Source: Escherichia coli O127:H6 str. E2348/69
GTDB lineage: Bacteria; Pseudomonadota; Gammaproteobacteria; Enterobacterales; Enterobacteriaceae
NCBI RefSeq assembly: GCF_000026545.1
Contig: NC_011601.1
DNA: 64,000 nucleotides
Strand: one strand, 5' to 3'
The position numbers and the translations under genes are program-made. The notes below the pieces were generated by a model. That model was not told where the DNA came from. It was given only the letters and a program-made list of their open reading frames with translations, and ran no database searches. Shown one piece after another: positions 8,534 through 32,696 of the stretch. Within the stretch, counting starts at the first letter, position 1; each line of letters begins with the position of its first letter.

Positions 8534-8871
8534 TGGGTTTGAAATGATTACTCCCTTGCCTGCAGGAAATCAATGCCACCAGAAACAGAGTATAAAAAAG
8601 GGTGCAGGAGACCAAACCATCACAATTCAGTACGCGGGGTTTTACCCCGCGTGGTGGCTACTTCTTCGATTCGTAAGCGAGAACTGCCTTAAACTCCATA
8701 CCACGTTCTCTGATACTCAACTCACACAACGAGTCGCCTACCATCAACGTGAATCCCAGTACTGTACAACACAGTACGATGATTGCCACAAGGGCATATT
8801 TTGTCAGCATGTCTGTGTAAGTTCACAGAGATATTGCAATTGCCTCCGGATAAGTAAGGGGAGATTGCACT

Positions 8872-15175: not shown

Positions 15176-15252
15176 TAAGAGTGTGTCGGCGGTCAATTTC
15201 CCTTAAGTAACGCTATGTTAGGGTGTTGTGTTCTGGATATCTGGGGCATGAC

Positions 15253-16524
15253 ATGGAAGACGACTGCGACATTATTATTATCGGTGCCGGAATTGCTGGC
15301 ACCGCTTGCGCGTTACGCTGCGCGCGAGCGGGTTTATCCGTTTTGTTACTGGAACGAGCGGAGATTCCCGGCAGCAAAAATCTTTCCGGCGGGCGGCTAT
15401 ACACTCATGCGCTCGCGGAACTCCTCCCGCAATTTCACCTGACCGCGCCTCTTGAACGACGCATCACTCACGAAAGTCTTTCTCTGTTAACGCAAGATGG
15501 CGCAACGACGTTTTCCAGCTTACAGCCCGGCGGTGAATCCTGGAGTGTATTACGTGCACGATTCGATCCGTGGCTGGTTGCCGAAGCCGAAAAAGAAGGT
15601 GTCGAATGCATCCCCGGTGCGACGGTAGATGCACTGTATGAAGAAAACGGCAGGGTGTGTGGTGTCATTTGTGGTGACGATATTCTTCGCGCCCGTTATG
15701 TGGTGCTGGCAGAAGGTGCCAACAGCGTCCTGGCGGAACGCCACGGGTTAGTGACTCGTCCTGCTGGCGAAGCGATGGCATTGGGGATCAAAGAAGCGCT
15801 GGCGCTGGAACCATCCGCTATTGAAGAACGTTTTCATCTGGAGAATAACGAAGGCGCAGCGTTGCTGTTCAGCGGCGGAATCTGTGATGACTTACCCGGC
15901 GGCGCATTTCTTTATACTAATCAACAAACGCTCTCGTTAGGGATTGTTTGCCCGCTCTCCTCCCTTACGCAAAGTCGTGTTCCGGCAAGCGAGCTGCTGG
16001 CTCGCTTTAAAACGCATCCGGCAGTGCGCCCGCTTATCAAAAACACGGAATCACTGGAGTATGGTGCGCATCTGGTGCCAGAAGGTGGCCTGCGCAGTAT
16101 GCCGGTGCAATACGCCGGTAACGGCTGGCTGCTGGTGGGCGATGCGTTGCGCAGTTGCGTCAATACCGGAATTTCCGTGCGCGGTATGGATATGGCGCTA
16201 ACTGGCGCGCAGGCGGCGGCACAAACGCTGATAAGCGCCTGCCAGCACCGCGAGCCGCAAAATCTGTTTCCGCTTTATCATCACAACGTAGAGCGCAGCC
16301 TGCTGTGGGATGTTCTACAGCGTTATCAGCATGTTCCGGCGCTTTTGCAACGCCCTGGCTGGTATCGGGTGTGGCCTGGGTTAATGCAGGATATTTCCCG
16401 TGATTTATGGGATCAGGGGAATACACCTGTTCCACCGCTGCGCCAGTTGCTCTGGCGTCATTTACGTCGTCACGGCCTGTGGCATCTGACGGGCGATGTT
16501 ATCAGGAGTCTGCGATGTCTGTAG
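15253..16524 (+). CDS. ygcN: FAD-dependent oxidoreductase, FixC/ETF-quinone-oxidoreductase-like
   Basis: ORF 15223..16524; dinucleotide-binding motif DIIIIGAGIAGTACA near N-terminus; start placed at MEDDCD (423 aa). Confidence 0.85.
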   Translation: MEDDCDIIIIGAGIAGTACALRCARAGLSVLLLERAEIPGSKNLSGGRLYTHALAELLPQFHLTAPLERRITHESLSLLTQDGATTFSSLQPGGESWSVLRARFDPWLVAEAEKEGVECIPGATVDALYEENGRVCGVICGDDILRARYVVLAEGANSVLAERHGLVTRPAGEAMALGIKEALALEPSAIEERFHLENNEGAALLFSGGICDDLPGGAFLYTNQQTLSLGIVCPLSSLTQSRVPASELLARFKTHPAVRPLIKNTESLEYGAHLVPEGGLRSMPVQYAGNGWLLVGDALRSCVNTGISVRGMDMALTGAQAAAQTLISACQHREPQNLFPLYHHNVERSLLWDVLQRYQHVPALLQRPGWYRVWPGLMQDISRDLWDQGNTPVPPLRQLLWRHLRRHGLWHLTGDVIRSLRCL

Positions 16525-16775
16525 CCCGTAATCTCTGGCGCGCTGCCGATGCGCCGCACATTGTTCCGGCTGACTCCGTTGAGCGCCAGACGGCACAACG
16601 GTTGATTAACGCCTGTCCAGCAGGTCTTTTTTCGCTCACACCTGAAGGTGGCTTACGTGTTGATTATCACGGCTGCCTGGAGTGTGGCGCCTGCCGTTTG
16701 CTGTGCGACGAATCAACACTACAACAGTGGCGCTATCCGCCTTCCGGATTCGGCATCACCTACCGCTTTGGATAA
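16515..16775 (+). CDS. ygcO: ferredoxin-like protein (FixX-like)
   Basis: 86-aa product from internal Met MSVARN; Cys-rich (CLECGACRLLC); start overlaps ygcN stop. Confidence 0.8.
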   Translation: MSVARNLWRAADAPHIVPADSVERQTAQRLINACPAGLFSLTPEGGLRVDYHGCLECGACRLLCDESTLQQWRYPPSGFGITYRFG

Positions 16776-16791
16776 ATAATAAGGATAATTT

Positions 16792-17367
16792 ATGCCCCTC
16801 TTACACCTGCTCCGCCAGAATCCGGTGATTGCTGCCGTTAAAGATAATGCCAGCCTGCAACTGGCAATCGACTCTGAATGCCAGTTTATTTCCGTGTTGT
16901 ACGGCAATATCTGCACCATTAGTAATATCGTTAAAAAGATTAAGAACGCCGGGAAATATGCTTTTATTCATGTTGATTTGCTGGAAGGCGCGTCAAATAA
17001 AGAAGTGGTGATTCAGTTTTTGAAACTGGTGACCGAGGCGGACGGAATTATCAGTACCAAAGCCTCAATGCTGAAAGCAGCAAGAGCGGAAGGTTTTTTC
17101 TGTATTCATCGACTGTTTATTGTTGATTCGATTTCGTTTCACAACATTGATAAGCAAGTTGCGCAATCGAATCCGGATTGTATTGAGATCCTGCCAGGCT
17201 GCATGCCTAAAGTGCTGGGCTGGGTGACGGACAAAATCCGCCAACCGCTGATTGCTGGCGGGCTGGTGTGCGATGAAGAAGATGCGCGTAATGCGATTAA
17301 CGCGGGTGTTGTGGCGCTTTCCACCACGAATACTGGGGTCTGGACGTTAGCGAAAAAATTGCTTTGA
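16792..17367 (+). CDS. ygcP: GlpP-family glycerol-3-phosphate-responsive antiterminator homolog
   Basis: 191-aa ORF, length and sequence consistent with the GlpP family; last gene of ygcNOP. Confidence 0.75.
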   Translation: MPLLHLLRQNPVIAAVKDNASLQLAIDSECQFISVLYGNICTISNIVKKIKNAGKYAFIHVDLLEGASNKEVVIQFLKLVTEADGIISTKASMLKAARAEGFFCIHRLFIVDSISFHNIDKQVAQSNPDCIEILPGCMPKVLGWVTDKIRQPLIAGGLVCDEEDARNAINAGVVALSTTNTGVWTLAKKLL

Positions 17368-17402
17368 CGGGATAATCGTAACAAGTTGAATTTGGTGTGA
17401 TT

Positions 17403-17473
17403 TGTAGGCTGCACGCCACATCCGACATCCAGCGCCTGATGCGACGCTTGACGCGTCTTATCAGGCCTACAAG
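17403..17473. repeat. REP/BIME element (two palindromic units)
   Basis: TGTAGGCTGCACGCCACATCCGACA ... GCCTGATGCGACGCTTGACGCGTCTTATCAGGCCTACA at the convergent ygcP/ygcQ junction. Confidence 0.7.
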
Positions 17474-17514
17474 TCCCCAGCCCAGAACCATCGGCAGGAT
17501 CATCCGGCAGCACG

Positions 17515-18375
17515 TTATTGGCAATCTGCGTGAATGTTTGTCACCAGTGCCTCCAGCACCACTTTCCAGTCATCAATCACGCCAACATCTGCCTGTGAAA
17601 ATACCGCTGCACTGGCGTCATGATTAATCGCCACCACAAACTTGCTATTGCGTACGCCCGCCATTAACGCTGCTGCGCCGGAAGCGCCAACAACAATACA
17701 CACCTCAGGTGCCAGCAGATGTCCGGAAATACCAATCACTTTTTCGGCATCAACGCCACCGTTCATCACTCGTGCCCGACTGTAGCCCACTTCGGCTCCC
17801 ATCTTTTCTGCCAGCATAGCGATTTCCTGGTTATCTGCCTCTCCGCCCTGCCCCACCACCAGCACCCGTCTGGCCTCAGCTAATGGGTCACGGGTAACAT
17901 TTTTCAGGTTTTCTATGCTGATAAGCCAGTCTGGAAGCGCGCCGGGGACAATGTTCAGTTGCTGCATCCCAGAGGGCAACGTGGCGTTTTTATCTGCTCC
18001 CGCCTGACGTGCCAGCGAAAGGCATAGCGGGCGTTTTTCTGTTTGCAGCGTCGCCGTTAGCGCATTTCCCCAGTGGGATTTGCGCACGCTTACGGTTGGA
18101 ATATCTAACGAAGTCACCTGGCAGATGCTTGCACCATGTAAACGCCAGGCCAGCCGGGTCGACAGTTCATCGCCAAACGTTCCCGGCGGAAAGAGAACAA
18201 CGTCCGCAGGCGTTCGTTGCCACTGTTCCACCAGCACATCCAGCACCTGTTCCGCAACCATCGGCTGTGGTTCTATTTGCCAATGTGCCAGGGTACAACC
18301 GCTGAAATCCTGCGCCGCCAGCCAGCTCGCTATTGCGGCATGTTCCTGATTTATTGTCACAATTGCGATATTCAT
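17515..18375 (-). CDS. ygcQ: electron-transfer flavoprotein alpha-subunit-like protein (FixB-like)
   Basis: ORF 17515..18408; ETF-alpha-like sequence; start placed at MNIAIVTINQ (286 aa). Confidence 0.82.
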   Translation of the reverse strand: MNIAIVTINQEHAAIASWLAAQDFSGCTLAHWQIEPQPMVAEQVLDVLVEQWQRTPADVVLFPPGTFGDELSTRLAWRLHGASICQVTSLDIPTVSVRKSHWGNALTATLQTEKRPLCLSLARQAGADKNATLPSGMQQLNIVPGALPDWLISIENLKNVTRDPLAEARRVLVVGQGGEADNQEIAMLAEKMGAEVGYSRARVMNGGVDAEKVIGISGHLLAPEVCIVVGASGAAALMAGVRNSKFVVAINHDASAAVFSQADVGVIDDWKVVLEALVTNIHADCQ

Positions 18376-19151
18376 GGCTGCATCCTTTGGCGTAAATAGT
18401 CCTGCCATAGCTTTTGCGCTTTTTCTGCTACCGTTTGCCCATCAATCAGCGCCGCTCTGCGTCGTTGCTCTGGCCTTGCCAGTTGCAGGCACTGTATCGC
18501 TGGCGCTTCCGCGGCAACAGTTTCGCGGGTAATCTCCGCTTTCCCCGCCGCCATTCGCTGGCGCATTCCCGGTACTGGCAAGGCCACTTCACCACACTGA
18601 CGCACGGCAATCACCGCAGGCAAGCGAACCCGGCAACAGCGTACCCCATGTTCAGTACGCTGTTCGAGGGTGATAAACGGTGCGTCGAGAGTAAAGCGCT
18701 CCACCTGGGTGAAGCAGGGCCAGACCAGCATTTCCGCCAGCAAAAATGGCGTTTGCCCATTCTGCCCTTCGCTGCTTTGGCAGCCAGTAATTATCAGATC
18801 CAGCGGATTCTGGTACTGCCATTCGGCAATATGGCGAGCGACAAATTCCGGCGCAAAGCACAGATCTGCCGCCGTCTCCAGCAATACAGCGTCCTCAAAC
18901 CCAAGAGCCATGAGATAGCGCAGCCAGTGCAACGCCCGTTCATCCCCCATGCTCAACGCGGTTAAAGACATCGGCGTACCGTTTTTTCTCTGCGCCAACA
19001 GCAGCGCGGCGGCAGCCTGTTCATCGGCACCGAGTAAACTTCGCAGAAGCGAAACATCCGGTCCGATATTACCCTGAGCCGCCGCCTGCCACTCTTTTTC
19101 CGCCAGCATTCCGGCATCCGGTTCGGCTTTAAACGCTAACAGAATGTTCAT
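18372..19151 (-). CDS. ygcR: electron-transfer flavoprotein beta-subunit-like protein (FixA-like)
   Basis: ORF 18372..19157; ETF-beta-like; 4-bp overlap with ygcQ start suggests translational coupling. Confidence 0.82.
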   Translation of the reverse strand: MNILLAFKAEPDAGMLAEKEWQAAAQGNIGPDVSLLRSLLGADEQAAAALLLAQRKNGTPMSLTALSMGDERALHWLRYLMALGFEDAVLLETAADLCFAPEFVARHIAEWQYQNPLDLIITGCQSSEGQNGQTPFLLAEMLVWPCFTQVERFTLDAPFITLEQRTEHGVRCCRVRLPAVIAVRQCGEVALPVPGMRQRMAAGKAEITRETVAAEAPAIQCLQLARPEQRRRAALIDGQTVAEKAQKLWQDYLRQRMQP

Positions 19152-20466
19152 TCGCACCTCCTACATTTCCCGCCGCCACCAGCGGGAGTGCTTTGGTTTC
19201 TGGTGCCCATAGCCAGGTCACAACAAAACCAACCAACAACACTGCCGCCAGGAGCAATAAGGTGACTTGCATTCCCCACTGCGCCAGCACCCACGGCAGC
19301 AGGCCCGTACTTACTGCCGCGCCCAACCGACTCATGGCGGTGGCAAAACCGACGCCCAGCGAGCGAATGTCAGTAGGAAAACTTTCCGCAGGCAAAATGC
19401 CCACCAGATTACTGACTGCCGAAATGGTGGTGCTGAAGAGAACAAAAAGCAGCAGCGTTAATGAACTGCCGGAAGGCAAACAGGCCATCACTACCAGCGT
19501 TGCCGCCAGCAGCAAAAAACTTCCCAGTAAAAATCTGCGATGTGCCAGCAGGTGCGTCAGAACTAATCCCAGCAGCGCGCCCACAATTAACAACGCATTA
19601 AGCATCAGGCTGGCAGTCAGCGCATCTTCCAGACCAATAGTTTGGGCGATGGTCGGCAGCCAGGTATAAATCACAAACCATGGGATTACGAGGCAGACAA
19701 AGAAGACGCTGTTAAACGCCGTGCGCCGCCAGTAGCGCGAAGAGAACAAGGTTTTGATGTGTTTATGGGTCGCCGTTGCCACTTCATCGCCCAGTAAAAC
19801 ATGCGGGCCAAAATAGCGATGAACGATAGCGTGAGCTTCTGCAAAACGCCCCTGGCGCAGTAGCCAGCGTGGCGATTCCGGCGTGCCCCAACGTAGCAGC
19901 GTAATCAGCAAAGCTGGTAACGCCGCTGATGCCAGCAGCCAGCGCCAGGCCTCCGGGCTTTCGGAAATAAAGTGATGTCCGGCAATACTTGCCAGCACAT
20001 AGCCTACGGTCCACACCACACTGAATGCGCCCAGCAAAATACCGCGATGGCGGCGCGGGGAAAATTCAGCCAGCAAGGTGTGACCGACTGAGTAATCGCC
20101 TCCCAGACCAATGCCGATCAAAATGCGCAATCCAATAAGATGCTCTGGCGTGGTGGCAAAAAATTGCAAGAACGAAGCGAGCGTAATCAGCATAAAACTG
20201 AAGGTGAAGATTTTTTGCCGCCCGATATGGTCGGAGATCCACCCCAAAACCAGGCTGCCAAGAAACAAACCAAGTAACGCCGAGCCGCCGATCATTCCCG
20301 CCATAAACGGCGTCAGTTGCATGGCGGGCGTAAGCTGAATAATGGCGTAACCAATGACGCCGAGAACATAACCGTCGGTCAGGTGTGCGCCGAAAGTGAG
20401 CGCAGCAATGCGGCAGTGAAAACGGTTAAGTGGTAAATCATCCATTCGCACCGGTGAAGTGTTCAT
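19129..20466 (-). CDS. ygcS: MFS transporter
   Basis: ORF 19129..20556; multi-TM hydrophobic sequence; start placed at MNTSPV (445 aa). Confidence 0.8.
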   Translation of the reverse strand: MNTSPVRMDDLPLNRFHCRIAALTFGAHLTDGYVLGVIGYAIIQLTPAMQLTPFMAGMIGGSALLGLFLGSLVLGWISDHIGRQKIFTFSFMLITLASFLQFFATTPEHLIGLRILIGIGLGGDYSVGHTLLAEFSPRRHRGILLGAFSVVWTVGYVLASIAGHHFISESPEAWRWLLASAALPALLITLLRWGTPESPRWLLRQGRFAEAHAIVHRYFGPHVLLGDEVATATHKHIKTLFSSRYWRRTAFNSVFFVCLVIPWFVIYTWLPTIAQTIGLEDALTASLMLNALLIVGALLGLVLTHLLAHRRFLLGSFLLLAATLVVMACLPSGSSLTLLLFVLFSTTISAVSNLVGILPAESFPTDIRSLGVGFATAMSRLGAAVSTGLLPWVLAQWGMQVTLLLLAAVLLVGFVVTWLWAPETKALPLVAAGNVGGANEHSVSV

Positions 20467-20559
20467 CTTTACCCCTTCATTGTCCGGTAATAAGAACGGC
20501 TTCTCGCCTGAGAAGCCGAAAAGGCAACGCCCTGTCATCGAGGAACGCTGCCTCACACA

Positions 20560-22014
20560 TTATTTTTCAATCGGATAGATAGTACCCGTATTCATAATGC
20601 CGTTAGGATCGAACTGTTTTTTCAGACCTTCCAGCAACGTCCACGCGCTGCCGTGTTCCAGTTTGCTCCAGTGAACGCGATGTTTACCGATACCGTGGTG
20701 GTGCACCATCGAACCGCCGAGACGAATGGTTTCTTCGCAGATGATTTTGTTGAGCGGATTGTGGTACTTGTCGATTTCCTCTTCCGGCTTACAGTCAACG
20801 ACGTTGTAGTCGTAGACGAAGTACATGTTGGTGCCGTTCTGATAGCTATGAGAGGAGTGACCGCCCAGCATGGTGATGTCGTCGGCGTGCGGGAACTCGG
20901 TACGAATACGGTTAATAACGCTTTCGTAGATTTCGTGAATGCAGCTCCAGCAGCCGGACACTTCAGTGGTAAAGCCCATGTTGCCGGTTTTGAGGATCTG
21001 CACACGTTCGGCAGCCACTTTATCCGGTCCCCAGTTCAGGTTGTTAAACCAGGTTTCGATCAGCTTGCTGTCCACGCGCTGGCACTGCGGGTAGCACGCC
21101 ACGATTTCAGCAATCCCTTCACCCGTCGCCTTCGCAATGCGAGGGTTACCTTCAGCCATAAAGATCAGCACGCATTTGCCGTCGGCAAAATGGGTGAAGT
21201 GTTGGGTGCCATCTTCAGCATCATACAAACGAGCAATCGACGGACGATACCCTTCCACCATGATTTCACGCAGGATGTTGAAGCCGGTTTTCATGTCTTC
21301 CAGCACATAGCCATAGAAGAGATTGTTTTCCGGCGTAAATTTGAAGATTTTCACTGTGACTTCAGTGATATAGCACAGTGCACCTTCGTTGCCGATGATG
21401 ATATGACGAATGTCCGGGCCAGCCGCGCGACGTGGCACGTTTTTAATGCGTGTGACGGTGCCATCTGCCAGCACCGCTTCCAGACCAACGACCATATCCT
21501 CGATTGCGCCGTAGAGTGTGGAAAACTGCCCGATACTGCGGGTCGCCACCAGGCCGCCCATCTGCGCCAGCGGCTTTGACTGCGGAGAATGCCCCGTGGT
21601 GTAACCTTTTTCACGCAGCGCGTTTTCCAGCACCTCCAGCGGAACGCCACATTGCGCCGTGGCCTGCATATTCTCAATATCAATATTAATGATTTGATTC
21701 ATGGCGGAGCCGTCGAGCACCACCGAGTTTTCCACAACGGTTTCCAGCCCACCTTCGGTGGCGGAAGCACCGGTACGTGGCACACCGTTAATTTTGTGCG
21801 CATTCATAAAATTCAGCACACGGGATACTTGTTCTGTGGAACCGAGTTTTACGACCGCTGCCGGAATTGGCAAAGTATAAATGCCATGAATATCCGGAAA
21901 TTTACGAAAACGGTCAATACTGTTCTTCTTTAATACTGTTTCATCGGTAATTACGCGATCTGCACCAACAATTTCCTTTAGCTGGTCGACAATCGCTACG
22001 CGAGATAAAGACAT
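20560..22014 (-). CDS. ygcU: FAD-linked oxidase (alkyl-DHAP-synthase / GlcD-like)
   Basis: 484-aa ORF with FAD-binding PCMH-type features. Confidence 0.82.
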   Translation of the reverse strand: MSLSRVAIVDQLKEIVGADRVITDETVLKKNSIDRFRKFPDIHGIYTLPIPAAVVKLGSTEQVSRVLNFMNAHKINGVPRTGASATEGGLETVVENSVVLDGSAMNQIINIDIENMQATAQCGVPLEVLENALREKGYTTGHSPQSKPLAQMGGLVATRSIGQFSTLYGAIEDMVVGLEAVLADGTVTRIKNVPRRAAGPDIRHIIIGNEGALCYITEVTVKIFKFTPENNLFYGYVLEDMKTGFNILREIMVEGYRPSIARLYDAEDGTQHFTHFADGKCVLIFMAEGNPRIAKATGEGIAEIVACYPQCQRVDSKLIETWFNNLNWGPDKVAAERVQILKTGNMGFTTEVSGCWSCIHEIYESVINRIRTEFPHADDITMLGGHSSHSYQNGTNMYFVYDYNVVDCKPEEEIDKYHNPLNKIICEETIRLGGSMVHHHGIGKHRVHWSKLEHGSAWTLLEGLKKQFDPNGIMNTGTIYPIEK

Positions 22015-22083
22015 AGTAATTCCTTCCTGATAATAAAAATGGAATAGTTATTAATAAGAGAAAACAGAAACCACCGTTATGAA

Positions 22084-22869
22084 TTAGCGCACTAAATAAC
22101 CGCCATCAACCACTAATAAATGTCCGTTGACATAATTCGATGCCGGACTTGCGAGGAATACGGCTGCACCCATTAAATCCTGAGTATCACCCCAACGGTT
22201 TGCCGGAATATGATCAAGAACACGCTGGTTAGTTTCTGGATTACTACGGGTCGCCAGCGTAATATCGGTTGCATAATAACCAGGAGCAATACCATTCACC
22301 TGAATATTATATTGGCCTAATTCATCGCAATAGGCTTTGGTGAATCCGGCAAGAGCATGTTTAGTGGCAGAATAAGCAGGTGACCATTGACCACCTAAGT
22401 AAGAGAACAATGAACAGATATTAATGATTTTACCGCTTTTCTGCGGGATCATAATTTTTGCCGCTTCGTAGCTTAACTCGAATGCGGCGGTCAGGTTCAC
22501 GTCAATCATCGGGTCCCAGTCGGCACGACCAAAGTCCAGCACCTTATTCAGCTTACAAATACCGGCATTGTTAACCAGAATATCTACGGTACCGAAGCGC
22601 TCACAGCAGGCAGCGATAATCTTCTGCGGCGCGCCTTCTGCGGTGATATCCACCTGCATAAAATCAACTTCGACACCCTGTTTTTCAATCATTTCCTTTG
22701 TTTCGCCGTTATCTTTGACGAAACTAGGAATAAAGACATTTGCGCCAGCTTTGGCCAACGCCATGGCAAATGCCTGGCCTAAACCGCTATTCCCGCCAGT
22801 AACAATTGCTGTTTTACCTTTCAGGGAGAAAAAATCCATTGAGAACGCATTGAGAGATTCGATTGACAT
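22084..22869 (-). CDS. ygcW: short-chain dehydrogenase/reductase (KduD / 2-deoxy-D-gluconate 3-dehydrogenase-like)
   Basis: ORF 22084..22944; Rossmann motif TGGNSGLG and catalytic YSATK; start placed at MSIESL (261 aa) because the upstream in-frame extension overlaps a leader hairpin and A/T run. Confidence 0.82.
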   Translation of the reverse strand: MSIESLNAFSMDFFSLKGKTAIVTGGNSGLGQAFAMALAKAGANVFIPSFVKDNGETKEMIEKQGVEVDFMQVDITAEGAPQKIIAACCERFGTVDILVNNAGICKLNKVLDFGRADWDPMIDVNLTAAFELSYEAAKIMIPQKSGKIINICSLFSYLGGQWSPAYSATKHALAGFTKAYCDELGQYNIQVNGIAPGYYATDITLATRSNPETNQRVLDHIPANRWGDTQDLMGAAVFLASPASNYVNGHLLVVDGGYLVR

Positions 22870-22893
22870 AGTTAGCTCCAATTTCCGTAAGGC

Positions 22894-22940
22894 AAAAAAA
22901 AAGAAAGGTAACTTCCCCCGCGAGAGGGAAGTTACCTTTC
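22894..22940 (-). terminator. intrinsic-terminator-like hairpin + U9 tract in the ygcW leader (candidate antitermination target)
   Basis: Perfect 15-bp stem GAAAGGTAACTTCCC (22903..22917) / GGGAAGTTACCTTTC (22926..22940), 8-nt loop; on the minus-strand transcript it is followed by nine U (A-run 22894..22902), ending 24 nt upstream of the ygcW ATG. Confidence 0.6.
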
Positions 22941-22990
22941 TCATTATCTCTGGTAACTGGAGATAATTTTTAGCATAAGGACATAACTGC

Positions 22991-23012
22991 TAATGTGATC
23001 GTAATCACAGTG
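22991..23012. promoter_or_regulatory. CRP binding site (consensus TGTGA-N6-TCACA) in ygcW/yqcE divergent promoter region
   Basis: TGTGATCGTAATCACA at 22994..23009 matches both CRP half-sites perfectly; a further TGTGA half-site follows immediately. Confidence 0.55.
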
Positions 23013-23115
23013 TGATGTTCGTATTGTCAAATAATTTAAAAAAGCAGAAGCGTGATTACTCTCACACAACACCTCTGCTTTCCATGTTATTTCTTATTGC
23101 AATTACTAGAGACCT

Positions 23116-23162
23116 GAGAAAAGTAATCCACCTGAAAGGGCGGCTTACTTTTCTCTTTTTTT
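23116..23162 (+). terminator. hairpin + U7 tract in the yqcE leader (terminator/attenuator-like)
   Basis: Perfect 11-bp stem GAGAAAAGTAA (23116..23126) / TTACTTTTCTC (23145..23155), 18-nt loop, then TTTTTTT (23156..23162), ending 24 nt upstream of the yqcE ATG. Confidence 0.45.
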
Positions 23163-23186
23163 GTCTATTACAAATGGGAATACGAT

Positions 23187-24464
23187 ATGCAACACAACTC
23201 ATATCGCCGTTGGATAACCCTCGCGATAATTAGTTTTAGCGGCGGCGTTAGTTTCGACCTGGCTTATTTACGTTATATTTATCAAATTCCCATGGCAAAA
23301 TTTATGGGATTCAGCAATACCGAGATAGGTTTAATAATGAGTACCTTTGGTATTGCGGCCATTATTTTCTATGCCCCTAGCGGCGTTATTGCCGATAAAT
23401 TTTCACATCGCAAAATGATTACTTCCGCGATGATCATTACCGGATTACTGGGTCTGTTAATGGCAACATATCCACCGCTGTGGGTAATGCTCTGTATTCA
23501 GGTCGCCTTTGCGATAACGACGATTTTAATGCTGTGGTCGGTGTCGATTAAAGCCGCATCGTTGCTGGGCGATCATAGCGAGCAAGGGAAAATTATGGGC
23601 TGGATGGAAGGGCTGCGCGGCGTCGGTGTAATGTCGCTGGCGGTGTTTACCATGTGGGTCTTTTCTCGCTTTGCACCGGATGACAGCGCCAGCCTGAAAA
23701 CGGTCATTATTATCTATAGTGTGGTTTACATTCTGCTGGGCATTTTGTGTTGGTTTTTTGTTAGCGATAACAACAATCTGCGCAGTGCCAATAACGAAGA
23801 AAAACAGTCATTCCAGCTTAGCGACATCCTGGCCGTTTTGCGCATCAGCACCACCTGGTATTGCAGCATGGTGATTTTTGGTGTCTTCACCATCTACGCC
23901 ATTCTGAGTTACTCCACCAACTATCTGACCGAAATGTACGGCATGTCGTTGGTGGCGGCGAGCTACATGGGGATTGTGATCAACAAAATCTTCCGCGCGC
24001 TGTGCGGCCCACTTGGCGGCATTATCACCACCTACAGTAAAGTGAAATCCCCTACCCGCGTGGTCCAAATCCTTTCCATCATCGGTTTGCTGGCGTTGAC
24101 AGCCCTGCTCGTCACGAACTCTAACCCGCAATCGGTCGCGATGGGGATTGGCCTGATTTTATTACTGGGATTCACCTGTTACGCCTCACGCGGGCTGTAC
24201 TGGGCCTGCCCTGGCGAAGCGAGAACACCGTCTTACATTATGGGCACCACGGTAGGTATTTGTTCGGTGATTGGATTTCTGCCGGATGTCTTCGTTTACC
24301 CGATTATCGGCTACTGGCAAGACACCCTGCCCGCTGCAGAAGCCTACCGCAACATGTGGCTAATGGGCATGGCGGCGCTTGGCATGGTGATCATCTTTAC
24401 CTTTTTGCTGTTCCAAAAAATTCGTACTGCTGATAGCGCCCCCGCAATGGCTAGCAGCAAGTAA
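23187..24464 (+). CDS. yqcE: MFS transporter
   Basis: 425-aa ORF, 12-TM-type hydrophobic profile. Confidence 0.82.
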   Translation: MQHNSYRRWITLAIISFSGGVSFDLAYLRYIYQIPMAKFMGFSNTEIGLIMSTFGIAAIIFYAPSGVIADKFSHRKMITSAMIITGLLGLLMATYPPLWVMLCIQVAFAITTILMLWSVSIKAASLLGDHSEQGKIMGWMEGLRGVGVMSLAVFTMWVFSRFAPDDSASLKTVIIIYSVVYILLGILCWFFVSDNNNLRSANNEEKQSFQLSDILAVLRISTTWYCSMVIFGVFTIYAILSYSTNYLTEMYGMSLVAASYMGIVINKIFRALCGPLGGIITTYSKVKSPTRVVQILSIIGLLALTALLVTNSNPQSVAMGIGLILLLGFTCYASRGLYWACPGEARTPSYIMGTTVGICSVIGFLPDVFVYPIIGYWQDTLPAAEAYRNMWLMGMAALGMVIIFTFLLFQKIRTADSAPAMASSK

Positions 24465-24490
24465 GCCAGGAAAATTACAGGAGAAAAATC

Positions 24491-25969
24491 ATGTCGAAAA
24501 AATACATCATAGGGATTGATGGCGGAAGTCAGAGCACAAAAGTGGTGATGTACGATCTGGAAGGTAATGTGGTTTGCGAAGGCAAAGGCTTATTGCAGCC
24601 GATGCACACGCCAGATGCCGATACCGCAGAACATCCTGACGACGATTTATGGGCATCACTATGTTTTGCCAGTCACGATTTGATGAGCCAGTTTGCCGGA
24701 AATAAAGAAGATATTGTCGGCATTGGCCTGGGCTCAATCCGTTGCTGCCGTGCGTTATTGAAAGCCGATGGTACGCCAGCCGCGCCGTTGATTAGCTGGC
24801 AGGATGCACGCGTTACACGCCCTTACGAACACACTAATCCTGACGTGGCCTATGTCACCTCTTTTTCGGGTTATCTGACACATCGCTTAACCGGCGAGTT
24901 TAAAGACAATATCGCCAACTATTTTGGTCAGTGGCCGGTGGATTATAAGAGCTGGGCATGGAGCGAAAATGCCGCGGTAATGGAAAAGTTTAATATCCCC
25001 CGCCAGATGCTTTTTGACGTGCAAATGCCAGGCACTGTTCTTGGGCATATCACACCACAAGCTGCGCTGGCGACACATTTCCCGGCTGGGCTGCCGGTTG
25101 TTTGTACCACCAGTGATAAACCGGTAGAAGCTCTGGGAGCCGGGTTACTGGATGATGAAACGGCGGTAATTTCTCTTGGCACCTACATCGCGTTGATGAT
25201 GAACGGCAAAGCACTGCCGAAAGATCCGGTCGCGTACTGGCCGATTATGTCTTCTATTCCGCAAACATTGCTGTATGAAGGTTACGGTATTCGCAAAGGC
25301 ATGTGGACGGTGAGCTGGCTGCGCGACATGTTAGGCGAGTCGTTAATTCAGGATGCCAAAGCACAGGATCTTTCACCGGAAGATTTGCTCAACAAAAAAG
25401 CGTCTTGCGTGCCACCTGGTTGTAATGGGCTGATGACGGTGCTGGACTGGCTGACCAATCCGTGGGAACCGTACAAACGCGGAATTATGATCGGCTTTGA
25501 TTCCAGCATGGATTACGCATGGATATATCGTTCGATACTGGAAAGCGTGGCGCTGACGCTGAAGAACAATTACGACAATATGTGTAATGAAATGAATCAC
25601 TTTGCAAAGCATGTGATCATTACTGGCGGCGGTTCGAACAGCGATCTGTTTATGCAGATTTTTGCCGACGTGTTCAACCTTCCGGCACGCCGTAACGCCA
25701 TTAATGGTTGTGCAAGTCTGGGGGCAGCGATCAATACGGCGGTAGGTCTGGGGCTATACCCGGATTACGCAACGGCTGTCGACAAAATGGTTCGCGTGAA
25801 AGATATCTTTATGCCTGTTGAGAGCAACGCCAAACGCTACGACGCGATGAATAAAGGCATTTTCAAAGACCTAACCAAACACACTGATGTGATCCTGAAA
25901 AAATCGTATGAAGTGATGCATGGGGAATTGGGGAATGCGGATTCGATCCAGAGCTGGTCGAATGCGTAA
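24491..25969 (+). CDS. ygcE: FGGY-family carbohydrate kinase
   Basis: 492-aa ORF with N-terminal IGIDGGSQSTK motif typical of FGGY sugar kinases. Confidence 0.85.
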   Translation: MSKKYIIGIDGGSQSTKVVMYDLEGNVVCEGKGLLQPMHTPDADTAEHPDDDLWASLCFASHDLMSQFAGNKEDIVGIGLGSIRCCRALLKADGTPAAPLISWQDARVTRPYEHTNPDVAYVTSFSGYLTHRLTGEFKDNIANYFGQWPVDYKSWAWSENAAVMEKFNIPRQMLFDVQMPGTVLGHITPQAALATHFPAGLPVVCTTSDKPVEALGAGLLDDETAVISLGTYIALMMNGKALPKDPVAYWPIMSSIPQTLLYEGYGIRKGMWTVSWLRDMLGESLIQDAKAQDLSPEDLLNKKASCVPPGCNGLMTVLDWLTNPWEPYKRGIMIGFDSSMDYAWIYRSILESVALTLKNNYDNMCNEMNHFAKHVIITGGGSNSDLFMQIFADVFNLPARRNAINGCASLGAAINTAVGLGLYPDYATAVDKMVRVKDIFMPVESNAKRYDAMNKGIFKDLTKHTDVILKKSYEVMHGELGNADSIQSWSNA

Positions 25970-26133: not shown

Positions 26134-27054
26134 ATGAGCGCAAGAGTATGGGTACTCGGTGATGCGGTTGTTGATTTATTACCCGAAAGCCAGGGGAGAC
26201 TACTACAGTGTCCTGGCGGGGCGCCTGCTAATGTTGCAGTCGGTATCGCAAGGCTGGGGGGGAAAAGTGCCTTTATTGGCAAAGTTGGCGATGATCCTTT
26301 CGGTCGCTTTATGTATCAGACACTGAGTACAGAAAATGTTGATACACGTTATATGTCTCTTGATCCTCAACAACGCACCTCAATTGTGGCTGTAGGACTT
26401 GATGAGCAAGGAGAAAGAAACTTTACCTTTATGGTACGCCCAAGTGCCGATCTTTTTTTACAACCTGATGACCTTCCTACATTTGGGCCGGGTGAATGGC
26501 TCCATCTTTGTTCCATTGCGCTCAGTGCAGAACCTTCCCGAAGTACCGCATTTCTGGCTATGGAGAAAATACGTCAGGCTGGCGGAAACATCAGTTTTGA
26601 TCCCAATATCCGCAGCGATCTCTGGCAGAGTGAAGCGCTATTAAGAAAATACCTTGATCGCGCGCTTTCGCTGGCGAATATCGCTAAATTGTCCGAAGAA
26701 GAGTTGCTATTCATCAGTGGCGAAAGCCAGGTTCAGCAAGGCGCATATTCATTAGTACAACGTTATTCGTTGACTTTATTGCTTATCACACAAGGAAAAA
26801 ATGGCGTACTTGTGTATTTTCAGGGGCAGTTTATCCACTATCCCGCCAAACCTGTTTCTGTCGTCGATACGACCGGGGCAGGAGATGCTTTTGTCGCTGG
26901 ATTACTTGCAGGTCTGGCTGATTCTGGAATACCAACAAATACCAGACAGCTTGAACGAATCATTGCACAAGCTCAGATTTGTGGTGCTCTGGCGACCACG
27001 GCTAAAGGCGCGATGACCGCCTTACCCCGACAACACGATCTCCCTTCACAATAG
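26134..27054 (+). CDS. scrK: fructokinase (ROK/PfkB ribokinase-family)
   Basis: 306-aa ORF with GGAPANVA and C-terminal DTTGAGDAF motifs; first gene of a scr-type cluster. Confidence 0.85.
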   Translation: MSARVWVLGDAVVDLLPESQGRLLQCPGGAPANVAVGIARLGGKSAFIGKVGDDPFGRFMYQTLSTENVDTRYMSLDPQQRTSIVAVGLDEQGERNFTFMVRPSADLFLQPDDLPTFGPGEWLHLCSIALSAEPSRSTAFLAMEKIRQAGGNISFDPNIRSDLWQSEALLRKYLDRALSLANIAKLSEEELLFISGESQVQQGAYSLVQRYSLTLLLITQGKNGVLVYFQGQFIHYPAKPVSVVDTTGAGDAFVAGLLAGLADSGIPTNTRQLERIIAQAQICGALATTAKGAMTALPRQHDLPSQ

Positions 27055-27105
27055 TGATCCTGCTGTTGTATCTGTAACCCGATTTGTCGTGCCTGTCACA
27101 TTTAC

Positions 27106-27177
27106 TAAATCGGTTTAGCGAAAATAATTGCTCTGGCTAAAAAGTCAGCTTTATTATCAACACCTAAACCGGTTTAG
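27106..27177. promoter_or_regulatory. two putative ScrR operators in scrY promoter region
   Basis: CTAAATCGGTTTAG (27106..27119, near-palindrome) and CTAAACCGGTTTAG (27164..27177, perfect 14-bp palindrome), 45-115 bp upstream of scrY. Confidence 0.55.
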
Positions 27178-27197
27178 CATTTTAGCAATTTTTATAA

Positions 27198-28739
<1,542 letters not shown>

Positions 28740-28747
28740 TACCAGAC

Positions 28748-28770
28748 AGCCTCACGGATGTGAGGCTTTT
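28748..28770 (+). terminator. weak hairpin/partial terminator between scrY and scrA
   Basis: AGCCTCAC-GGAT-GTGAGGCT followed by only TTT; may attenuate rather than terminate. Confidence 0.3.
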
Positions 28771-28799
28771 ACTGAAATAACAATGAATTAGAGGGTTAT

Positions 28800-30170
28800 A
28801 TGGATTTCGATAAAATCGCCCAATCGTTGCTTCCTTTATTAGGTGGTAAGGAGAACATCGCCAGTGCAGCACATTGCGCCACTCGCCTACGGCTGGTACT
28901 GGTTGACGACACACTTGCCGATCAACATGCCATTGGCCAGATTGATGGAGTGAAAGGTTGTTTTCGTAATTCAGGGCAAATGCAAATCATCTTTGGCACC
29001 GGCGTGGTTAATAAAGTCTATGCTGCCTTTATTCAGGTTGCAGGTATTAGCGAATCCAGTAAAGCAGATACCGCTCGACTCGCCGCTCAAAAACTCAATC
29101 CTTTTCAGCGAATAGCACGGCTACTTTCTAATATTTTTGTCCCCATCATTCCAGCCATTGTTGCTTCTGGTTTATTAATGGGGCTCCTGGGAATGGTGAA
29201 AACATATGGCTGGGTGAATGCCGATAATGCGATTTATATCCTGCTGGATATGTGCAGTTCAGCCGCATTTATTATTCTCCCCATCCTTATTGGCTTTACT
29301 GCTGCTCGTGAATTTGGTGGAAATCCTTATCTTGGCGCGACATTAGGAGGGATTCTGACTCACCCGGCACTCACAAATGCCTGGGGCGTTGCTGCGGGAT
29401 TTCAGACAATGAACTTCTTCGGTTTTGAAATCGCCATGATTGGCTATCAGGGAACGGTTTTCCCCGTGCTTCTGGCAGTATGGTTTATGAGCATAGTGGA
29501 AAAACAGTTACGCAGGTTTATCCCTGATGCTCTGGATCTCATTCTGACGCCATTTCTGACTGTCGTCATTTCTGGCTTTATCGCTCTTTTGATTATTGGT
29601 CCGGCAGGACGAGCGTTAGGTGACGGTATCTCTTTCGTTCTCAGCACGCTGATTGCACACGCAGGCTGGTTAGCAGGGTTGTTATTCGGCGGGCTATATT
29701 CAGCGATTGTTATTACGGGTATTCATCATAGCTTCCACGCAATTGAAGCAGGACTTTTAGGTAACCCTGCAATCGGTGTTAATTTCCTGCTGCCTATTTG
29801 GGCAATGGCAAACGTTGCGCAAGGAGGTGCATGTCTGGCGGTATGGTTTAAAACCAAAGATACAAAAATTAAAGCAATCACCCTACCCTCGGCCTTTTCC
29901 GCAATGTTAGGGATTACTGAAGCCGCTATTTTTGGTATCAACCTTCGTTTTGTTAAACCTTTTATTGCGGCCTTAATTGGTGGCGCTGCCGGCGGTGCCT
30001 GGGTTGTCTCTGTTCACGTTTATATGACTGCCGTTGGTCTGACCGCAATACCCGGCATGGCAATCGTTCAGCCAACATCGTTGGTTAATTATATTATTGG
30101 AATGGTGATTGCTTTCGCTGTCGCTTTTAGCCTCTCTTTATTACTCAAATACAAAACGGACGAGGAGTAA
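28800..30170 (+). CDS. scrA: PTS sucrose-specific EIIBC component
   Basis: 456-aa ORF; N-terminal EIIB Cys motif (ASAAHCATRLR) followed by multi-TM EIIC domain. Confidence 0.88.
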   Translation: MDFDKIAQSLLPLLGGKENIASAAHCATRLRLVLVDDTLADQHAIGQIDGVKGCFRNSGQMQIIFGTGVVNKVYAAFIQVAGISESSKADTARLAAQKLNPFQRIARLLSNIFVPIIPAIVASGLLMGLLGMVKTYGWVNADNAIYILLDMCSSAAFIILPILIGFTAAREFGGNPYLGATLGGILTHPALTNAWGVAAGFQTMNFFGFEIAMIGYQGTVFPVLLAVWFMSIVEKQLRRFIPDALDLILTPFLTVVISGFIALLIIGPAGRALGDGISFVLSTLIAHAGWLAGLLFGGLYSAIVITGIHHSFHAIEAGLLGNPAIGVNFLLPIWAMANVAQGGACLAVWFKTKDTKIKAITLPSAFSAMLGITEAAIFGINLRFVKPFIAALIGGAAGGAWVVSVHVYMTAVGLTAIPGMAIVQPTSLVNYIIGMVIAFAVAFSLSLLLKYKTDEE

Positions 30171-31579
30171 TGTCGATGCCTTCACAAATGCCCGCGATTT
30201 TACAGGCAGTGATGAAAGGTCAGTCCAAAGCACTGGCAGATGCCCACTATCCTTGTTGGCATCTCGCTCCAGTCACCGGACTAATGAACGATCCAAATGG
30301 CTTTTGTTGGTCTGGAGGCCGCTATCATCTGTTTTATCAATGGAATCCACTGGCTTGTGATCATAAGTACAAATGTTGGGGGCACTGGAGTTCGACGGAT
30401 TTATTGCACTGGCAGCATGAACCATTAGCGCTAATGCCCGATAAAGAGTACGACCGTAATGGTTGTTACTCAGGAAGCGCGGTTAATAATCAGGGCGTTC
30501 TCACACTTTGCTATACCGGTAATGTTAAGTTTGATGATGGCAGCAGAACGGCATGGCAATGCCTGGCCACCGAAAATAACCAGGGCGGGTTTGATAAACT
30601 AGGCCCTGTCATACCGTTACCTGATGGTTACACCGGACATGTTCGTGATCCAAAAGTCTGGAAGCACAACAGCCAATGGTACATGGTGCTTGGCGCGCAA
30701 GATAAAGAGAAACGGGGGAAAGTGCTGCTGTATTCCTCTGTCGATCTCTATACCTGGTCTTTTCATGGAGAAATTGCTGGTAACGGTCTGAATGAAATAG
30801 ATAACGCAGGATACATGTGGGAATGTCCTGATCTTTTCGCCCTTGATGGTGAATACATTCTCCTCTGTTGCCCCCAGGGAATGGTGCGCGAACATGAGCG
30901 CTATCTGAATACTTATCCCTGCGCCTGGCTACATGGACAGTTTGATTACGAGACAGGCAAATTTACGCATGGCGCTTTCTCAGAGCTGGATGCGGGATTT
31001 GAATTCTATGCACCACAGACGATGGAAGCCCCGGACGGGCGACGATTGCTGGTCGGCTGGATGGGGGTTCCTGATGGCGAAGAGATGTTGCAGCCAACCA
31101 GAAAGCATCATTGGCAGCATCAAATGACCTGTTTTCGCGAACTCTCATTCCAGAAGGGAAAATTGTTTCAGATGCCAATCAGGGAACTCGCGCAACTGCG
31201 TGAAGCTGAACACTTCTGGCAAGGAAAAGCGGATCATGCGCCGCATGTCGAAATTGAACGCCTGGAAATGGACATCATTCCGTCGGGTGAGCTGTATCTG
31301 AATTTTGGCAATGCGCTGGCACTGCATCTTAATGACGATGGTATTCAACTACAGAGGAGAAGCCTTGCAGGGCAAGAGAAACTAACTCGTTACTGGCGAG
31401 GAAGCGTAACGTCACTGAAGATTCTCTGTGACAGTTCCAGCGTAGAGATATTCATCAATAATGGTGAAGGTGTAATGAGTAATCGTTATTTTCCCCATCA
31501 TCCAGCTTCGCTGATATTACAGGGTGAGTCTGACGTCACGTTACGCTACTGGTCGCTACGCGCCTGCATGGTAGAATGA
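30170..31579 (+). CDS. scrB: sucrose-6-phosphate hydrolase (GH32 invertase)
   Basis: 469-aa ORF with GH32 signature MNDPNG and downstream W(M)ECPD; start codon choice near 30170 uncertain. Confidence 0.88.
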
Positions 31580-31604
31580 GGGTTTTGAATTACGGATCCT
31601 CGTC

Positions 31605-32612: not shown

Positions 32613-32628
32613 TCCCGTCACTATCTTG

Positions 32629-32660
32629 CATCGCCCCTGTAAAACGGGGCGATTATTTTC
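32629..32660 (+). terminator. intrinsic terminator after scrR
   Basis: ATCGCCCC-TGTAAAAC-GGGGCGAT hairpin followed by TATTTTC. Confidence 0.6.
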
Positions 32661-32696
32661 ATCCTGAACGTTAAATATTAATGATGAATAATCAAA

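Follow-up and report, generated by a model that had tools for sequence, protein, structure and literature searches.

The ygc cluster of Escherichia coli comprises ten genes and lies at positions 15253-25969 of the 64,000-nucleotide stretch of strain O127:H6 E2348/69 analysed here, referred to below as the window. We propose, with even confidence, that the cluster is one regulon for the catabolism of a small compound, in which two layers of control govern a core of three enzymes acting on a betaine-type glycerol derivative. The part of this proposal that concerns control is well supported by sequence comparison: ygcWUSRQ and yqcE-ygcE would be controlled by the product of ygcP, a member of the GlpP family of RNA-binding antiterminators, through antitermination at two leader RNAs. 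That the cluster exists and has no assigned function is not new. The present analysis adds a family of leader RNAs, two of them in E. coli and predicted to respond to YgcP, the division of the genes into a conserved core and accessory redox genes (those of an electron-transfer flavoprotein, ETF, and its FixC- and FixX-like partners), the link with betaine transporters, and a predicted active site of the AGPS (alkylglycerone-phosphate synthase) type in YgcU.

Over all its 10,717 bases the cluster matches E. coli O127:H6 E2348/69 with 100% identity. By megablast, 5060 complete E. coli genomes out of 5426, or about 93%, contain at least 80% of this length. The original prediction, made from the letters of the sequence alone, had described ten contiguous genes in three transcription units. 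Its coordinates and strands coincide exactly with those of the ten open reading frames (ORFs), and RefSeq agrees, with ygcN, ygcO and ygcP on the plus strand, ygcQ, ygcR, ygcS, ygcU and ygcW on the minus strand, and yqcE and ygcE on the plus strand. None of the ten is flagged as a pseudogene in the RefSeq annotation, and within each unit the genes overlap or are separated by short gaps, as is compatible with operons. In the following list, MFS stands for major facilitator superfamily, FAD for flavin adenine dinucleotide and SDR for short-chain dehydrogenase.

ygcN, 15253-16524, plus strand: flavoprotein similar to FixC and YdiS and a putative ETF:quinone oxidoreductase (380 bits with NCBIfam PRK10015 and 363 with FixC, neither reaching its cutoff)
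ygcO, 16515-16775, plus strand: FixX-like ferredoxin (NCBIfam FixX, E=5.7e-23, 81 bits for a cutoff of 166)
ygcP, 16792-17367, plus strand: GlpP-family RNA-binding antiterminator (Pfam PF04309 G3P_antiterm, E=2.7e-62, model positions 1-173 of 173)
ygcQ, 17515-18375, minus strand: ETF alpha/FixB-like subunit (E=2.6e-20)
ygcR, 18372-19151, minus strand: ETF beta/FixA-like subunit (E=2.5e-11)
ygcS, 19129-20538, minus strand: MFS transporter with aromatic-acid/NiaP, sugar-porter and organic-cation-transporter-like matches
ygcU, 20560-22014, minus strand: AGPS-like FAD enzyme of 484 amino acids, the most conserved protein of the system
ygcW, 22084-22869, minus strand: KduD-like SDR
yqcE, 23187-24464, plus strand: MFS transporter of the anion:cation-symporter/organophosphate-antiporter type
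ygcE, 24491-25969, plus strand: FGGY-family kinase

Every family assigned in that prediction was recovered by searches of NCBIfam and Pfam, and none of the window proteins reached a curated NCBIfam equivalog cutoff, so that a specific function is not transferable to them from characterised relatives. YgcW is near KduD and yet outside it (NF005390, 349.9 bits for a cutoff of 369; TIGR01832, 276 bits for a cutoff of 339). YgcE scores 143 bits with XylB (8e-42, cutoff 380), 141 bits with LsrK (5e-41, cutoff 528) and 103 bits with GlpK (2e-29, cutoff 590), its nearest solved structure being LsrK (5ya0). YgcS matches TIGR00895 (1e-53) and the cation transport model TIGR00898 (4e-39), and YgcP aligns end to end with PDB entries 3kts (E=2e-27, residues 11-184) and 1vkf. 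YgcU has the domains FAD_binding_4 (PF01565) and FAD-oxidase_C (PF02913), as given by the precomputed Pfam domains of a 99%-identical homolog and its relatives. Models of the FixA, FixB, FixC and FixX types are matched by YgcR, YgcQ, YgcN and YgcO respectively: all four components of a FixABCX-like set are thus present, with scores under the curated cutoffs (380 for 466, 81 for 166, 73 for 240 and 43 for 445), and their genes are split across opposite strands as had been described. The overall picture of a coherent catabolic cluster also holds: besides uptake functions and a GlpP-family antiterminator it has a kinase, an SDR, a flavoenzyme and ETF/FixCX.

No substrate had been considered established, and searches of the full-text literature (omics supplementary tables being outside the search) found neither a substrate nor a pathway for any ygc gene. 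Overexpression of YgcS, a NiaP-like carrier, increases the production of nicotinamide mononucleotide from nicotinamide (PMC8601175), ygcR has been named a "death gene" in cells with damaged DNA (PMC2646832), and a PNAS paper of March 2026 treats YgcU merely as an FAD-binding oxidoreductase (PMC13012123). The "ygcO" of a review of the nitrogen-related phosphotransferase system (PTS-Ntr) is a typographical error for ycgO.

While the original prediction recognised YgcP as an antiterminator homolog, which its full-length match to PF04309 bears out, it named no RNA targets. We place the predicted targets at two leaders, which leave the region between the divergent genes ygcW and yqcE in opposite directions, each preceded by a site for the cAMP receptor protein, CRP:

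ygcW leader RNA, 22890-22961, minus strand: hairpin P1 with 5' arm 22958-22952, GA-rich loop 22951-22937 and 3' arm 22936-22930
ygcW leader terminator, stem 22942-22901 and U-tract 22900-22894, minus strand: overlaps P1; a terminator scan gives a 19-bp stem followed by a T run
yqcE leader RNA, 23098-23166, plus strand: P1 arms 23102-23107 and 23122-23127, terminator stem 23116-23155, U-tract 23156-23162
CRP site, 22994-23009: perfect consensus TGTGATCGTAATCACA, centred about 41.5 bp before the ygcW leader motif begins
CRP-like site, 23051-23066: one mismatch, centred about 41.5 bp before the yqcE leader motif begins

In the antiterminator hairpin P1 a stem of 7 bp closes a GA-rich loop (AGAG...GAGAAA), and the 3' arm of the hairpin lies inside the 5' arm of the terminator. 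The yqcE leader is a paralogous copy of the ygcW element, with a terminator stem of 17 positions and a U7 tract, and the leader hairpins of both start with GAGAAA(G/A)GUAA. We compared 80 orthologous loci, one genome per species, in which the motif AGUUACU-AGAG-N4-GAGAAA-AGUAACU-UUCC...GGAA...CUUUUCUC-U8 is found upstream of SDR genes and is common to E. coli, Photobacterium, Sporomusa, Geosporobacter, Halobacillus and Virgibacillus. A pattern search identified about 100 copies in these loci, always ahead of operons of the cluster (SDR, yqcE-FGGY, ygcU and the transporter genes BCCT and OpuC), and two only in the 64-kb window. It overlooked copies in the loci numbered L004 (SDR), L067 and L076, which were picked up by a covariance model (CM). 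Over 1.58 Mb of loci the CM gave 118 matches, including actinomycete loci from outside the training set. A further model, R2, built from the non-Enterobacterales copies only, retrieved exactly the two E. coli leaders in the 64 kb, with E=1.3e-11 for ygcW and 2.5e-9 for yqcE, the next best match having E=0.29. A scan of the cluster against Rfam 15 at E<=1 gave no match at either leader, returning only a REP-like naRNA4 and a chance snoRNA.

Covariation supports both of the competing structures. In an alignment of 46 sequences the P1 stem (AGUUACU/AGUAACU) is 95% paired. The pair 7-37 is GC in 32 sequences, AU in 14 and broken in 0, and another pair changes from UA to CG. The outer terminator stem is 99.5% paired, with both sides changed at 4 pairs. 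Alignment column 32 covaries with its partner in P1 and also with its partner in the terminator, as expected of mutually exclusive folds. The minimum free energy structures, at -42.4 kcal/mol (z=-5.95) for ygcW and -27.1 kcal/mol (z=-3.7) for yqcE, are the terminator folds in both cases, so that the default state of a leader alone would be "off". P1 by itself is weak (-6.7 kcal/mol for ygcW and -1.4 for yqcE) compared with these, and would therefore need a stabilising factor, presumably a protein.

The distribution of the motif points to the identity of that protein. Motif and GlpP-like gene occur together in 60 loci and are both absent from 23, with the RNA only in 5 and the gene only in 1 (Fisher p=1.9e-15), and the five RNA-only loci are mostly short contigs. 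Loci without the antiterminator gene, including those of several Desulfobacterales, SAR324 and Alkalihalobacillus, have genes for GntR-family regulators or sigma-54 activators nearby.

CM scans for a third copy of the motif, upstream of ygcN and between ygcW and ygcU, found none. The 77-nt gap between queD and ygcN (15176-15252, plus strand) is without the leader motif and its hairpin is not significant (z=-1.3); ygcNOP, and hence the antiterminator itself, may possibly be transcribed by read-through from queD. In some Bacillota and one gammaproteobacterial contig an additional leader copy is found within the operon, directly 5' of ygcU (L066 9849-9914, L071 8714-8800 and L064 1741-1805), and read-through would thus be checked twice per transcript.

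One of the closest known systems is that of Bacillus subtilis GlpP, which acts on the glpD, glpFK and glpTQ leaders in dependence on glycerol 3-phosphate (G3P) and belongs to the same PF04309 family as YgcP. Foreign promoters come under the control of GlpP and glycerol when given the 5' untranslated region of B. subtilis glpD alone (PMC9604022). Compared by eye, it is laid out as the ygc leaders are, with a small hairpin formed by GGUC, a UGAGAUGAGGAGA loop and GACC whose 3' arm enters the 5' arm of the terminator (PMC9604022), and the ygc leaders resemble GlpP leaders also in being off by default and under catabolite control. They differ from them in the stem (AGUUACU/AGUAACU, compared with GGUC/GACC in glpD) and in the consensus of the loop. 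The targets differ too: those of GlpP are glpD, glpF and glpK, while the ygc targets are a set of SDR, AGPS-like and FGGY genes with betaine-type or MFS transporters, and the hosts of the ygc system include Proteobacteria and Actinomycetota, E. coli having two divergent copies which flank CRP sites. The ligand of YgcP is probably not G3P. A protein-stabilised hairpin overlapping the 5' arm of a terminator is also a feature of antitermination by BglG and SacY at ribonucleic antiterminator (RAT) sites, whose protein fold and RNA sequence are unrelated to those described here. GlpP-type antitermination is controlled by ligand binding, and the BglG/SacY type by phosphorylation through the PTS.

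A second layer of control would be provided by CRP. A site in the ygcW/yqcE intergenic region was predicted earlier (PMC1794230); the perfect-consensus site is bound in vitro with a Kd of about 1.7 nM (PMC12871828) and in vivo, as seen by chromatin immunoprecipitation in enterotoxigenic E. coli (PMC4287617), and yqcE-ygcE is listed among the Crp-activated genes (PMC8085971). Since about 41.5 bp separate the centre of each site from the position where the respective motif begins, we infer class II CRP promoters whose transcripts would start at the leader motifs. Both leaders and the CRP site are kept across the Enterobacterales.

Comparison of the loci, in which ORFs were called throughout and then clustered (with a filter on GC content at third codon positions for high-GC actinomycete loci), separates a core from accessory genes. 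The antiterminator, SDR, FGGY kinase and YgcU travel together across Pseudomonadota, Bacillota and Actinomycetota, and Desulfobacterota and SAR324 have the three enzymes without the antiterminator. E. coli YgcU shares 64-76% amino acid identity with its orthologs in Desulfobacterota, Bacillota and Actinomycetota when loci L053-L086 are taken together, and the comparison of the clustered distant orthologs gave 64-73%. Distant SDR orthologs share 63-81% with YgcW (up to 97% overall), and ygcU is nearly always adjacent. The ETF genes of enteric and anaerobe loci show an identity of only about 30%. They are absent from loci of Halobacillus, Virgibacillus, Thalassobacillus, Erwinia, Pantoea and the Serratia proteamaculans type, and FixCX, including the ygcN orthologs, is found in Enterobacterales loci only. 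Even between E. coli and Citrobacter or Klebsiella the difference is clear, at 92-97% identity for YgcU, YgcW and YgcP compared with 73-77% for YgcN and 54-62% for YgcQ. ETF/FixCX is an accessory and weakly constrained redox link outside the core, since it is missing from many loci and diverges faster than the core does. The 64-76% identity of YgcU, set against about 30% for ETF, suggests either a very strong constraint on YgcU or a recent horizontal spread of the core.

The kinase shows a history of its own. YgcE is 78-98% identical to its counterparts in Enterobacteriaceae and Cedecea, 51-58% in Bacillota and only 42-49% to the kinase encoded at the corresponding place in Serratia, Rahnella, Erwinia and Pantoea, although YgcU of these same loci (L036-L052 as against L009-L035) is still 76-84% identical. 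This appears to be a paralogous displacement of the FGGY kinase within the Enterobacterales.

A homolog of the formaldehyde-activating enzyme (Fae) above the NCBIfam cutoff (140 bits for 118) and an aldo-keto reductase (AKR) are encoded in the ETF-less loci L037, L042, L049, L051 and L052 of Enterobacterales and L053 of SAR324, and the enteric ones additionally hold a LysR regulator gene. The AKR resembles L-glyceraldehyde-3-phosphate and methylglyoxal reductases, which would fit a triose-aldehyde intermediate. Enterobacterales are not known to synthesise tetrahydromethanopterin. The genes gsiABCD, iaaA and moeAB beside the Erwinia and Pantoea clusters were considered as pathway genes and set aside as merely conserved flanking genes.

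The most conserved protein, YgcU, has peroxisomal AGPS as its top PDB match (profile E=2e-55; 4bby, 2uuu), followed by glycolate oxidase, LctD, D-lactate dehydrogenase and D-2-hydroxyglutarate dehydrogenase. Three catalytic elements of the AGPS active site correspond in the profile alignment to positions that are invariant in the YgcU family:

AGPS Arg419: YgcU R262
AGPS Tyr578: YgcU Y398
AGPS His615-617: YgcU H438-H440

PDB entries 4bca and 4bby differ by a Tyr to Phe change at exactly the tyrosine that matches Y398. Where dehydrogenases of the GlcD type have a Glu-His metal ligand, YgcU has HHHGIG, and its score with the glcD model is 142 bits for a cutoff of 568. Judged by these residues YgcU is AGPS-like and not a hydroxyacid dehydrogenase of the GlcD type. 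An identity as GlcD or another D-2-hydroxyacid dehydrogenase was thus rejected, the score being below the cutoff and the EHGxG motif lacking, and D-2-hydroxyacids were discarded as substrates on account of the mismatch with this motif. Unlike AGPS (EC 2.5.1.26), YgcU is cytosolic, bacterial and, to judge from its context, catabolic; it is often followed by ETF genes, for which AGPS, an enzyme that replaces an acyl group on DHAP by a fatty alcohol, has no need, and nothing speaks for lipid substrates.

Outside the Enterobacterales the transporters encoded in the operons are informative. BCCT genes are found in 14 loci, glycine-betaine BCCT being the best model, followed by CaiT and BetT, and betaine ABC systems of the OpuC/OsmF type in 6 of the 80 loci as well as in L089 and L090. 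These genes at times stand directly behind the same leader RNA motif, and the enzymes of the BCCT/OpuC clusters are 63-79% identical to YgcU and YgcW. An MttB-family gene lies immediately 5' of the SDR gene in L088, in other Desulfobacterales loci MttB genes are likewise found within the operon or next to it, and L005 has an MttB-superfamily methyltransferase with corrinoid and pterin-binding partners. YqcE orthologs follow the RNA motif in Enterobacterales, Photobacterium and Prauserella; in Prauserella and in enterics the carrier is of this anion-symporter type, a YqcE-type MFS protein accompanies a BCCT in Photobacterium, and a similar MFS protein does so in a Eubacterium locus. In a single locus, that of Alkalihalobacillus, genes for an aspartase-like lyase, an aldehyde dehydrogenase and a zinc-dependent alcohol dehydrogenase precede the core, a set which may be what the conversion of a homoserine betaine-type alcohol to fumarate and trimethylamine would need.

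Because of the BCCT/OpuC transporters, the MttB neighbours and the organic-cation-like matches of YgcS, the evidence points to a betaine-type substrate, zwitterionic or cationic, which would have a hydroxyl that can be phosphorylated and a secondary alcohol that can be oxidised. Among the classes of compound that we can name, deacylated betaine-lipid head groups are a minor possibility, trimethylammonio-diols linked through C-N a somewhat smaller one, and glycerophosphocholine-like diesters a distinctly slim one; the substrate is, by a little over even chances, something else. Carnitine was rejected, being without a primary hydroxyl for the FGGY kinase.

How these elements might work together can be set out as follows. 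Cyclic AMP-CRP would activate the two divergent promoters between ygcW and yqcE, and each leader would by default form a strong intrinsic terminator that keeps the genes off. YgcP loaded with a phosphorylated intermediate of the pathway would bind and stabilise P1, blocking termination and switching on ygcWUSRQ and yqcE-ygcE. After uptake, YgcE may phosphorylate a primary hydroxyl of the glycerol-like substrate, giving the G3P-like molecule that YgcP would sense, and YgcW with NAD+ could then oxidise the neighbouring secondary alcohol (C2) to a keto-phosphate resembling dihydroxyacetone phosphate (DHAP). YgcU, using flavin chemistry of the AGPS type at C1 beside the ketone, would break a stable C1-X bond (ether or C-N+) and yield a product at the level of triose phosphate together with the freed substituent, either by a redox-neutral exchange with water or by a net oxidation whose electrons would go to ETF, FixCX and quinone. 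As accessories, YgcQR (ETF) and YgcNO (FixCX-like) would in enterics join the YgcU flavin to the quinone pool. The substituent would most likely be of the betaine type, that is, a quaternary ammonium compound, often zwitterionic, for which deacylated betaine-lipid head groups, glycerophosphocholine-like compounds and trimethylammonio-diols are candidates. It is from genes and their neighbours that we infer the ligand, which bond is cleaved, in what order the steps occur and which way electrons flow. The core would parallel the steps of eukaryotic ether-lipid metabolism in reverse, with YgcE as alkylglycerol kinase, YgcW as alkyl-DHAP reductase and YgcU as AGPS, and such a reversal would account for the use of three enzymes on a bond closed to hydrolases. 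More speculatively, and we hold this to be doubtful, the cluster would represent an undescribed catabolic strategy in which reversed ether-lipid chemistry cuts the C1-X bond of glycerol-linked betaines, such as trimethylammonio-glycerols or the deacylated head groups of diacylglyceryl trimethylhomoserine (DGTS) and diacylglyceryl hydroxymethyltrimethylalanine (DGTA), giving triose phosphate and a quaternary amine.

Several observations weigh against this picture of AGPS-type cleavage of a betaine-type glycerol derivative. The E. coli cluster itself is without a BCCT or OpuC gene and the betaine link rests on orthologs, and the association with MttB could be due in part to the many MttB paralogs of Desulfobacterales genomes. 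A redox-neutral exchange as in AGPS would need no ETF, yet in the anaerobe loci examined ygcU is immediately followed by the ETF genes, an arrangement that points to a net redox step. AGPS has a length of about 580-660 aa and an N-terminal domain associated with its lipid substrate; this region, some 150-175 residues, is absent from YgcU, the alignment starting at AGPS residue 179, and residues of the AGPS type could in YgcU support another chemistry; an AlphaFold2 model of YgcU built from a 12-sequence alignment had a predicted local distance difference test score (pLDDT) of 58.8, too poor for a view of the active site. Finally, the model leaves the Fae-like and AKR genes of the ETF-less enteric and SAR324 loci unaccounted for.

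The original prediction saw in the cluster a plain pathway for a polyol or a sugar-acid-like compound, taken up by the MFS carriers, phosphorylated by YgcE and dehydrogenated by both YgcW and YgcU, with electrons flowing from YgcU through ETF and FixCX to quinone. The near-miss of YgcW at the KduD cutoff, the resemblance of the kinase to xylulokinase and LsrK and of YqcE to galactonate and phosphoglycerate carriers, promoters that depend on CRP as those of sugar regulons do, and the ETF genes that follow ygcU in many loci all accord with such a pathway. We nonetheless regard it as unlikely. GlcD/AGPS-like, the description given of YgcU, is right as to the superfamily and the AGPS triad is kept, but the Glu ligand of the GlcD type is replaced by HHHG and the glcD model is far from its cutoff (142 for 568), so that the second dehydrogenation attributed to YgcU was an assumption. 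Clusters with YgcU and YgcW 63-79% identical to those of E. coli use BCCT or OpuC and in some cases adjoin MttB, which argues against a substrate resembling a polyol or sugar acid. As for dedicated electron transfer to quinone, its genes are indeed present, but they evolve fast and, being dispensable in many loci, are no part of the conserved core.

A redox role for ETF can also be sought in the opposite direction. E. coli has two paralogous sets of ETF alpha and beta, FixC and FixX in the same genome, FixABCX beside caiTABCDE and YdiQRST with YdiO, and the megablast query matched a median of 4 places per genome, which probably include such paralogs. Like the ygc set, each of these is tied to one flavoenzyme-based pathway, and one of them handles a quaternary amine, carnitine; unlike them, the ygc set is split over two strands, scores below the cutoffs of both paralog models and has as its partner an enzyme of the vanillyl-alcohol oxidase (VAO)/AGPS type rather than of the acyl-CoA dehydrogenase type. 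FixCX and ETF might accordingly feed electrons from the quinol/NADH pool, or from an LctD-like enzyme, into YgcU for a reductive cleavage of C-N+ or C-O, serving as a partial electron sink much as FixABCX supplies CaiA in carnitine respiration. FixABCX presumably donates electrons to the reductase of the carnitine pathway. YgcN is equally similar to FixC and to the YdiS-type model. Anaerobe loci have ygcU, ETF beta and ETF alpha in one row with the gene of a further oxidase, of the classic GlcD/LctD type (a D-lactate/glycolate-type flavoenzyme with the motif SEHGVG); some add a second ETF whose alpha subunit has a faint match to a ferredoxin domain, and in L090 a gene for the lactate racemase LarA is nearby. 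Acetobacterium woodii LctBCD (PDB 7qh2) likewise has the gene of a GlcD-family flavoenzyme beside ETF beta and alpha, and the second FAD oxidase of the anaerobe loci is LctD-like in its Glu-His motif, but the active site of YgcU is not and the second oxidase is missing in E. coli. Aerobic halophilic bacilli, moreover, have the core without a dedicated ETF, and activation by CRP suits carbon catabolism more than respiration, so that we judge the reductive variant to be improbable. A redundant module for glycerol or G3P seems to us very improbable. In it YgcP would sense G3P, YgcE would serve as an additional kinase for glycerol or dihydroxyacetone, and YgcU together with ETF would be an alternative G3P dehydrogenase; the GlpP family is named for its responsiveness to G3P, and one locus of the Desulfobacterales type is adjoined by glpK- and glpD-like genes. 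In such a module the universally linked SDR and the BCCT and OpuC transporters would have no function, and YgcE scores lower with GlpK (103 bits) than with XylB and LsrK. A transcriptome study that included glycerol classed yqcE-ygcE as Crp/growth-rate regulated and not as glycerol specific (PMC8085971), which is weak and indirect evidence. The least credible reading, in our estimate, is that of a cryptic or decaying cluster whose genes E. coli inherited without a working pathway. Neither a growth phenotype nor an inducer was found in the full-text literature, and ETF and FixC diverge fast among close relatives; against this, the ten ORFs are intact and widespread in the 5060 of 5426 genomes, identity with Citrobacter and Klebsiella is 92-97% for the core proteins, and conservation across Enterobacterales extends to both leader RNAs and the CRP site.

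Whichever substrate proves correct, the two leader terminators and YgcP would form a defined genetic switch which could be used as a reporter in screening for inducers, and a minimal core of three enzymes is available for reconstitution, with the candidate substrates narrowed to glycerol derivatives bearing a betaine-type group. GlpP-type antitermination would reach beyond the glycerol operons of Gram-positive bacteria, from which it is known, into E. coli and at least four phyla, and y-genes that are decades old become a testable system which could reveal new flavoenzyme chemistry. If the betaine link holds, the cluster would be relevant to the turnover of quaternary amines and trimethylamine in the gut and in marine sediments, and flavin chemistry of the AGPS type would have a catabolic role in bacteria. 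Under the reversed ether-lipid scheme the freed amine would go to MttB methyltransferases in anaerobes and to the alcohol dehydrogenase, aldehyde dehydrogenase and aspartase-like lyase in Alkalihalobacillus, and gut Enterobacteriaceae would have an unrecognised route to trimethylamine precursors under a new class of GlpP-type riboregulatory element.

Three minor features of the region may be added. The gap between the convergent genes ygcP and ygcQ contains a REP-like element (17384-17467, plus strand) that scores 39.9 bits with Rfam naRNA4, for a gathering threshold of 59.5 (E=2.5e-4). Between ygcE and queE, at about 26134-33300 of the window (L001 18882-25360), there is a block of the sucrose-utilisation type, with a fructokinase-like "aminoimidazole riboside kinase", a carbohydrate porin, a sucrose PTS IIBC, a sucrose-6-phosphate hydrolase and a LacI regulator. 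In E. coli K-12, queE presumably follows ygcE directly, and the block looks like a strain-variable insertion. Between iap and cysH, at about 8650-9910 of the window (L001 1406-2654), the RefSeq annotation has a Hok/Gef toxin gene and the pseudogene of a truncated insertion sequence integrase, in the position where many E. coli have a CRISPR-Cas locus.

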